From Escherichia coli (GTDB taxonomy: Bacteria > Pseudomonadota > Gammaproteobacteria > Enterobacterales > Enterobacteriaceae): DNA of 64,000 nucleotides. The notes beneath the pieces are model-generated. The model was not told the origin of the DNA and did not search any database. It worked only from the letters and a program-made list of their open reading frames with translations. The number at the start of each line of letters is the position of its first letter. Position 1 is the first letter of the stretch. Below are positions 38,672 through 38,970 of this stretch, in pieces. The stretch lies in NCBI RefSeq assembly GCF_045037415.1, contig NZ_CP173438.1. One strand, written 5' to 3'. Made by a program: the position numbers and the translations under genes.

Positions 38672-38750
38672 GTTCAGCGAACAAAGATTTTAAATACAAA
38701 AAAACCGCAATTTGTAGAACACATTGCGGTTTGTCAGCATTCTAATAAAT

Positions 38751-38764
38751 TGGTTGCGGGGGCC
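38751..38764 (-). other. 14-nt remnant of a tRNA-fMet 3' end (acceptor stem plus CCA); candidate genomic-island attachment-site repeat
   Basis: TGGTTGCGGGGGCC is the reverse complement of GGCCCCCGCAACCA, the 3' end of E. coli initiator tRNA-Met; the match stops after 14 nt. Confidence 0.5.
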
Positions 38765-38970
38765 ACAGTCAAGAGGTTAATCCAATCTTTTGAAACTTAA
38801 GGTATTCACTGTTCCCGAACCCAAGCTATCTACCGAAATATACACTCATTATCTGATGTGAATCAACGAGTAGATCGAATGGCCTGTTCCTCTCTTTTTT
38901 GTACACAAAGACTCCTTTTAAAAAATAGCAAGGTCACATATCCCTTATTGGTACATAAATCCCCCGATGT

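Follow-up and report, generated by a model that had tools for sequence, protein, structure and literature searches.

A T6SS island of ~42 kb was probably inserted site-specifically at the 3' end of metV, leaving its distal (left) junction, in the form of a 14-nt tRNA remnant at 38751-38764, inside the window (the whole 64,000-nucleotide stretch of Escherichia coli DNA that was analysed). This 14-mer, TGGTTGCGGGGGCC on the + strand, very probably represents the 3' end that metV had before the island moved it away, and it forms the left border of the island. The island is already published and its border is an ordinary insertion footprint at a tRNA, and current understanding is unchanged by the border result. 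The borders of a well-known ExPEC island are nevertheless fixed here to the base, at 38765 on the left and at an island-borne terminator beside metV on the right, and the amiC-metV interval is found to hold two independent accessory modules, a PTS block and the T6SS cluster.

A fragment of initiator tRNA-Met within the window

The 14-mer is the reverse complement of GGCCCCCGCAACCA, the final 14 nt of the initiator tRNA-Met genes of E. coli (metV, metW and metZ of K-12, and those of other genomes), and read on the minus strand it covers tRNA positions 63-76, comprising the end of the T stem, the 3' strand of the acceptor, A73 and CCA. It is present in a single copy in the window, even when two mismatches are allowed, and an exact copy arose in none of 100 dinucleotide-preserving shuffles of the window. 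It is identical to the 3' end of every metV, metW and metZ copy compared in our junction table and is then followed by island sequence, not tRNA, with identity breaking off right after the 14-mer (ACAGTCAAGAGG in the window versus GGATTTGAACCG in the tRNA gene). No match was found across the window for a 25-nt tRNA probe at up to three mismatches, ARAGORN reported no tRNA gene in the window, and an Rfam scan of 38300-39200 gave nothing above noise, its top match being a plant miRNA family at E = 0.36. An earlier note on this DNA, made from the sequence alone, had read the 14-mer as the reverse complement of the initiator tRNA-Met 3' end, with a match that stops immediately afterwards; both statements agree with the uniqueness of the 14-mer, the shuffles, and the empty probe and ARAGORN searches. 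The case that it had named against itself, in which the 14-mer is part of some other conserved element, is contradicted by the Rfam scan, the shuffles and the junction table.

Intact metV, metW and metZ at the far end of the island

The window matches ST131-type E. coli genomes at 100%, and the 2.1 kb around the remnant are 100% identical in many E. coli chromosomes. In window-identical genomes, the minus strand carries three intact tRNA-fMet genes (metV, metW and metZ) 41.9 kb rightward of the remnant, with the T6SS cluster occupying the DNA in between. Strain H105, which is 100% identical to the window over 60002-64000 (BLAST) and carries the same ISEc12 insertion in tssM, places the metV 3' end at window-equivalent position 80622, followed by metW, metZ and mltA; on this mapping, the distance from the remnant to the metV 3' end is 41,871 bp and metV lies ~16.6 kb past the right edge of the window. 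Strain SK1144 gives the gene order on both sides: to the left recD, argA, amiC, a PRD antiterminator, PTS EIIC, MalY/PatB, a KpsF/GutQ-like isomerase and a phosphoglycerate-dehydrogenase-like gene, and to the right of the remnant vasL, tssE, tssJ, tssG and tssF, through to tssC, tssB and three minus-strand tRNA-Met genes. The metV, metW and metZ genes are intact and on the minus strand at the far island end in SK1144, H105, SF-166, W and EC707. An intact tRNA-Met gene on the minus strand past the right edge, as the earlier note had anticipated, is seen in both H105 and SK1144, and the opposite case, an island with no intact tRNA-Met beyond it, does not hold in window-identical genomes.

A direct repeat that extends into the terminator of the tRNA operon

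The remnant and the copy beside intact metV share more than the tRNA end. They have 41 exact bases in common (38724-38764), beyond which, toward lower coordinates, come a 13-nt block that differs and then 12 matching bases (38699-38710), so that the direct repeat measures 66 nt overall, of which 14 nt are tRNA and 52 nt lie downstream of the tRNA. In copy B of the repeat (38699-38764, minus strand), an 18-nt spacer separates the 14-nt tRNA end from a terminator hairpin; the other copy, A, adjoins intact metV ~41.9 kb rightward, outside the window. A direct repeat of the tRNA end is real and present at the far island end, as had been proposed, but its length was underestimated: in place of the 14 nt, or at most 14-20 nt, previously predicted, it has 41 exact bases, or 66 with the variable loop included.

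The hairpin beside the remnant, which we name termB, is an orphaned intrinsic terminator of the metZWV operon (38698-38732, minus strand), with the stem CCGCAAT/ATTGCGG followed by a U7 run on the minus strand; termA denotes the copy beside intact metV. In the window, termB lies downstream of vasL, the last T6SS gene, and is convergent with the dehydrogenase gene. It folds at -18.6 kcal/mol (z = -4.4), and hairpin copies beside intact metV fold at -16.4 to -18.4 kcal/mol. In EPEC E2348/69 and E. whittamii, the termB hairpin stands directly after intact metV. A simple terminator scan did not flag the hairpin beside the remnant, probably because of its loop limit of 3-8 nt. The repeat of E. coli W amounts to 17 nt only (AAT plus the 14-mer); that of the window type reaches 41 exact bases, or 66 overall, because termB and termA are homologous. 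The tRNA operon shares its strand with the T6SS genes, and tssB follows metV at a distance of 634 bp. A likely role of termA would be to keep transcription that starts at the strong tRNA promoter from running on into the T6SS cluster, and orphaned termB, just past vasL, could end the vasL transcript.

The metV-proximal terminator differs in its loop and inner stem in every lineage examined, with the outer stem and U-run conserved. Loop variants are TTTGTAGAACACA, GCTAATAGTCGCT, GCCAATAGCAGCT and GCTAAAGGTAGCG, the loop being located at 38711-38723 of the window, at 48577-48589 of locus L001 and, by estimate, at ~37790-37802 of L007 and ~8787-8799 of L006. In genomes with both terminators, the 18-nt spacer of termA is the same as that of termB, whereas the spacer of W differs at four positions; the two repeats may thus have undergone gene conversion. 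The sequence expected directly 3' of metV in the window's own genome is TTGCGGTTTGTCAGCATTCTAATAAATTGGTTGCGGGGGCC.

Four states of the amiC-metV interval

All four combinations of PTS block and T6SS cluster occur in E. coli. Neither block is present in K-12, where 73 nt separate amiC from metV and hold two different terminators (a flank that we call tK). The PTS block occurs alone in 597 genomes, counted as those covering at least 80% of a chimeric 'empty site' query, and in E. whittamii; EPEC E2348/69 is of this type and reads amiC, PTS block, termB and intact metV, with no T6SS cluster. The T6SS cluster occurs alone in E. coli W, which reads amiC, tK, 14-mer, T6SS cluster, termA and metV with no PTS block, and 250 genomes cover this W-type junction. 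Both blocks are present in the window, the 2.1-kb junction of which is covered by 943 genomes. Overall, the left end of the island was found in 1342 of 5426 genomes and its right end in 1336. A comparison with K-12 synteny, recommended in the earlier note, identifies the locus as the amiC-metV interval of K-12.

Across these states, the flank to the left of the remnant is the one that adjoins intact metV in the matching empty-site genomes, either termB or tK (junction table). Thus termB lies to the left of the remnant in the window type and adjoins intact metV in PTS-only genomes such as E2348/69, and the K-12-type terminator pair lies to the left of the remnant in W and adjoins intact metV in K-12. 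The termA copy is always found between the island and intact metV. The island junction, GGGGCC followed directly by ACAGTCAAG (also written as GGGGCC followed by ACAGTCAAGAGG), falls at the same base in both T6SS-bearing states, and alignments to genomes without the T6SS cluster end exactly at the last base of the 14-mer, as do those of K-12-type genomes to the W junction. At the other end, the order tssB, AT-rich spacer, termA and metV is found in 1336 genomes, with IS1 there only occasionally. That the island runs from 38765 onward, as first proposed, is borne out by T6SS-free alignments that stop at the 14-mer and by the same junction in W within a different left context. A scan of the genome collection for the flank TCTAATAAATTGGTTGCGGGGGCC found it in one species only, E. 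whittamii, in the PTS-only state and with adjacent coding sequence visibly different from that of the window; at the exact-match level, the same scan found this flank in no other genus.

The PTS block as a second accessory module

The conserved core gene to the left of the variable interval is amiC (31841-33184, + strand; 31841 is the listed start of the open reading frame and 31931 the annotated start). It is followed at 33185-38697 on the + strand by the PTS block, containing genes for a PRD antiterminator, PTS EIIC, MalY/PatB, a KpsF/GutQ-like isomerase and a phosphoglycerate-dehydrogenase-like protein. The block starts right at the amiC stop codon, the point at which the sequences of K-12 and W part from that of the window, and ends in termB. 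GC content is ~53% in amiC, 33-48% in the PTS block and 51-59% in the T6SS genes, the last with AT-rich valleys of 30-36%. The PTS block is a second accessory module, not core DNA, because it starts at the amiC stop codon, has this low GC, is absent from K-12 and W, and ends in termB at the tRNA. The earlier note had correctly placed a junction between PTS block and T6SS island at the remnant, but it had taken the PTS block as neighbouring non-island DNA, when the block is itself accessory. No second tRNA remnant was found in the window on the amiC side of the block, even with two mismatches allowed, nor any tRNA-like stretch in the amiC-PRD intergenic sequence, so the block has no att flank on its left. 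Its occurrence in E. whittamii as well points to an old presence in the genus. The EIIC gene of the PTS block is a pseudogene in E2348/69.

Proposed insertion at metV and alternative explanations

The proposed insertion accounts for features that are observed directly, namely a direct repeat, tRNA genes left intact, a junction fixed to the base, unoccupied sites in other genomes and an interval that exists in four states. On this view, a short core at the very 3' end of metV would have recombined with a matching core carried by the incoming island DNA, in a conservative, site-specific reaction; on the + strand the core reads AAT plus TGGTTGCGGGGGCC. The incoming DNA would have brought a replacement metV 3' end together with its own terminator, termA, so that none of the three tRNA genes would have been disrupted and their transcription would still stop ahead of the T6SS promoter region. 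The resident termB, together with the former metV 3' end, would have been displaced by ~42 kb, to beside the PTS block. A tyrosine-type integrase may have made the junction, and would then have been lost later or have acted in trans. Junctions of both kinds, tK-14-mer-island and termB-14-mer-island, exist, which implies at least two recombination events with a crossover in the 14-17-nt core. A core of this length appears too short for ordinary homologous recombination, and at least two events within it would favour a site-specific recombinase over a single illegitimate event.

The converse history, in which the T6SS cluster is ancestral and the K-12-type and PTS-only states are precise deletions between the repeats (17 nt in the W type, 41 nt in the window type), is in our judgement decidedly improbable, although parts of it are attractive. 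A perfect repeat of 41 nt is a plausible substrate for deletion, and offers a plausible route to precise loss of the T6SS island; a crossover in the 41-nt block would leave the termB loop exactly as in PTS-only genomes, and T6SS-bearing genomes are common (1342/5426). Yet deletion explains loss and not the origin of the repeat, since it would still take an insertion to place a second tRNA 3' end 42 kb away, and the K-12 type would call for a precise deletion over 17 nt, a rare event. The PTS-only arrangement of E. whittamii, a separate species in which nearby coding sequence differs, also fits an old unoccupied site. Tandem tRNA-fMet genes, three copies at this locus, could vary in number, and the 14-mer might accordingly be the leftover of a fourth gene or a decayed pseudogene cut by an unrelated insertion or deletion, with neither duplication nor att site. 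We regard this as very unlikely: in genomes with an empty site, the same flank is joined to exactly three tRNA genes, the duplication also takes in the 52 nt beyond the tRNA, and at its right end the island adjoins a metV that is complete and has a 3' end and terminator of its own. A truncated fourth copy was excluded on the same ground, the right end presenting a complete tRNA and the duplicated 52 nt, with no 5' tRNA fragment. The match has only 14 nt, and the neighbouring hairpin was missed by the simple terminator scan, as would suit coincidence or an origin in some other conserved element, such as a small RNA or a REP-like repeat; the probability of this is close to nil given 0 of 100 shuffles and only noise from Rfam over 38300-39200, the position of the 14-mer exactly at the edge of a 42-kb presence/absence segment in two independent contexts, and its flank, which is the terminator that follows intact metV elsewhere.

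Several results speak against site-specific insertion at metV. In SK1144, W, SF-166, H105 and EC707, neither the island nor the DNA beside metV has an annotated integrase or recombinase gene, and sampling of right-junction variants turned up no integrase either. Within the repeat, the tRNA portion (14 nt) begins in the T stem, leaving the T loop and anticodon loop outside; most characterised tRNA-targeting integrases reportedly cross over in one of these two loops. A search for a circular or excised form of the island likewise came up empty. Accordingly, the footprint predicted in the earlier note stands as to the repeat, the empty sites and the intact tRNA, and with no integrase gene present an integrase att site can only be inferred. 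A scan of viral contigs for an attP-bearing relative, with the core and a non-tRNA base as query, gave seven loci, none of them related. It remains doubtful, though conceivable, that an integrase-less island carrying its own metZWV terminator, with the stem kept and the loop lineage-variable, reached the 17-nt core on two or more occasions, one of them in a K-12-type flank and another in a PTS-type flank. If true, such repeated entry would imply that an unlinked recombinase, with specificity for the very 3' end of the initiator tRNA, mobilised the island in trans.

One of the seven loci of the viral scan lies on contig L016 (IMGVR_UViG_3300012347_000380), which at 2610-2665 carries a ~40-nt fragment of initiator tRNA-Met, from the 3' end to the anticodon region, with no intact tRNA gene. 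It looks like an ordinary phage att site of the anticodon-loop type, unrelated to the island. Like the window, this phage sequence carries the 3' part of the initiator tRNA; unlike it, the part is ~40 nt long and not the last 14 nt.

Relation to known islands

tRNA remnants at the borders of genomic islands are textbook features. Classical tRNA islands, of the P4-integrase type at pheV, leuX and asnT, resemble the island of the window in having an intact tRNA at one end, the tRNA 3' end repeated at the opposite end, empty sites in relatives, atypical GC and a second accessory module in the interval. The window island differs from them in having no integrase gene, a tRNA part of only 14 nt, and a repeat that runs 52 nt into the terminator. 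[quoted passage not shown] 2007, via PMC2660368 and PMC2907695; PMC3573123), the same cluster in E. coli W, again downstream of metV, is known as ETSS2 (PMC3032704), and metV is among the frequent tRNA integration sites of E. coli (PMC7545054). Like the island of the window, PAI-CFT073-metV/ETSS2 lies downstream of metV between amiC and mltA and has the same T6SS gene set. ETSS2 of E. coli W is 96.5% identical to the window over 38765-39800, with an identical remnant junction; E. coli W served as the published copy in this comparison. The window differs from E. coli W in carrying ISEc12 in tssM, in having no MucR-family gene beside the remnant, and in the PTS block that stands in front.

Gene content of the island and variation within it

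The left part of the island (PAI-metV/ETSS2) fills the window from 38765 to 64000 on the minus strand, as delimited by the annotation of identical genomes, and GC rises from ~43% to ~55% across the junction. Its genes within the window are vasL, tssE, tssJ, tssG, tssF, a PAAR gene, tssA, an interrupted tssM, vgrG genes and effector genes; beyond the window, it continues for ~16.6 kb to tssB, an AT-rich spacer of 634 bp, the island-borne termA and intact metV.

The interruption of tssM (ImcF-related) is caused by ISEc12, an IS21-family element (49870-52450, minus strand; istA, 513 aa; istB, 249 aa) flanked by a 5-bp target duplication, GCAGT, and splits the gene into 48102-49904 and 52398-54338. 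Judged from the sequence, ISEc12 in tssM has probably rendered the T6SS inactive. The insertion is shared by many ST131-type genomes and is absent in SK1144; it lies within the island and has no part in the att footprint. In E. coli W, a MucR/Ros-family regulator gene lies between the remnant and vasL (L004, 8117-8774). In the window, 658 bp are missing at ~38875-38879, leaving only the first ~32 nt of this gene, which appears to have been deleted in the window lineage.

Several vgrG paralogues of the island are 89-98% identical over 1.4-2.3 kb (56801-59071 and 62556-64000 of the window; 24796-26251, 30540-32813 and 36573-38799 of L001), and the effector modules could be rearranged through these internal repeats. 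A sharp AT-rich valley at 44000-45800 (GC 30-36%), with tssF on one side and the PAAR gene on the other, contains a small hypothetical gene at ~44659-45081. This valley is likely to be a swapped effector/immunity cassette; SF-166 has other genes in its place.
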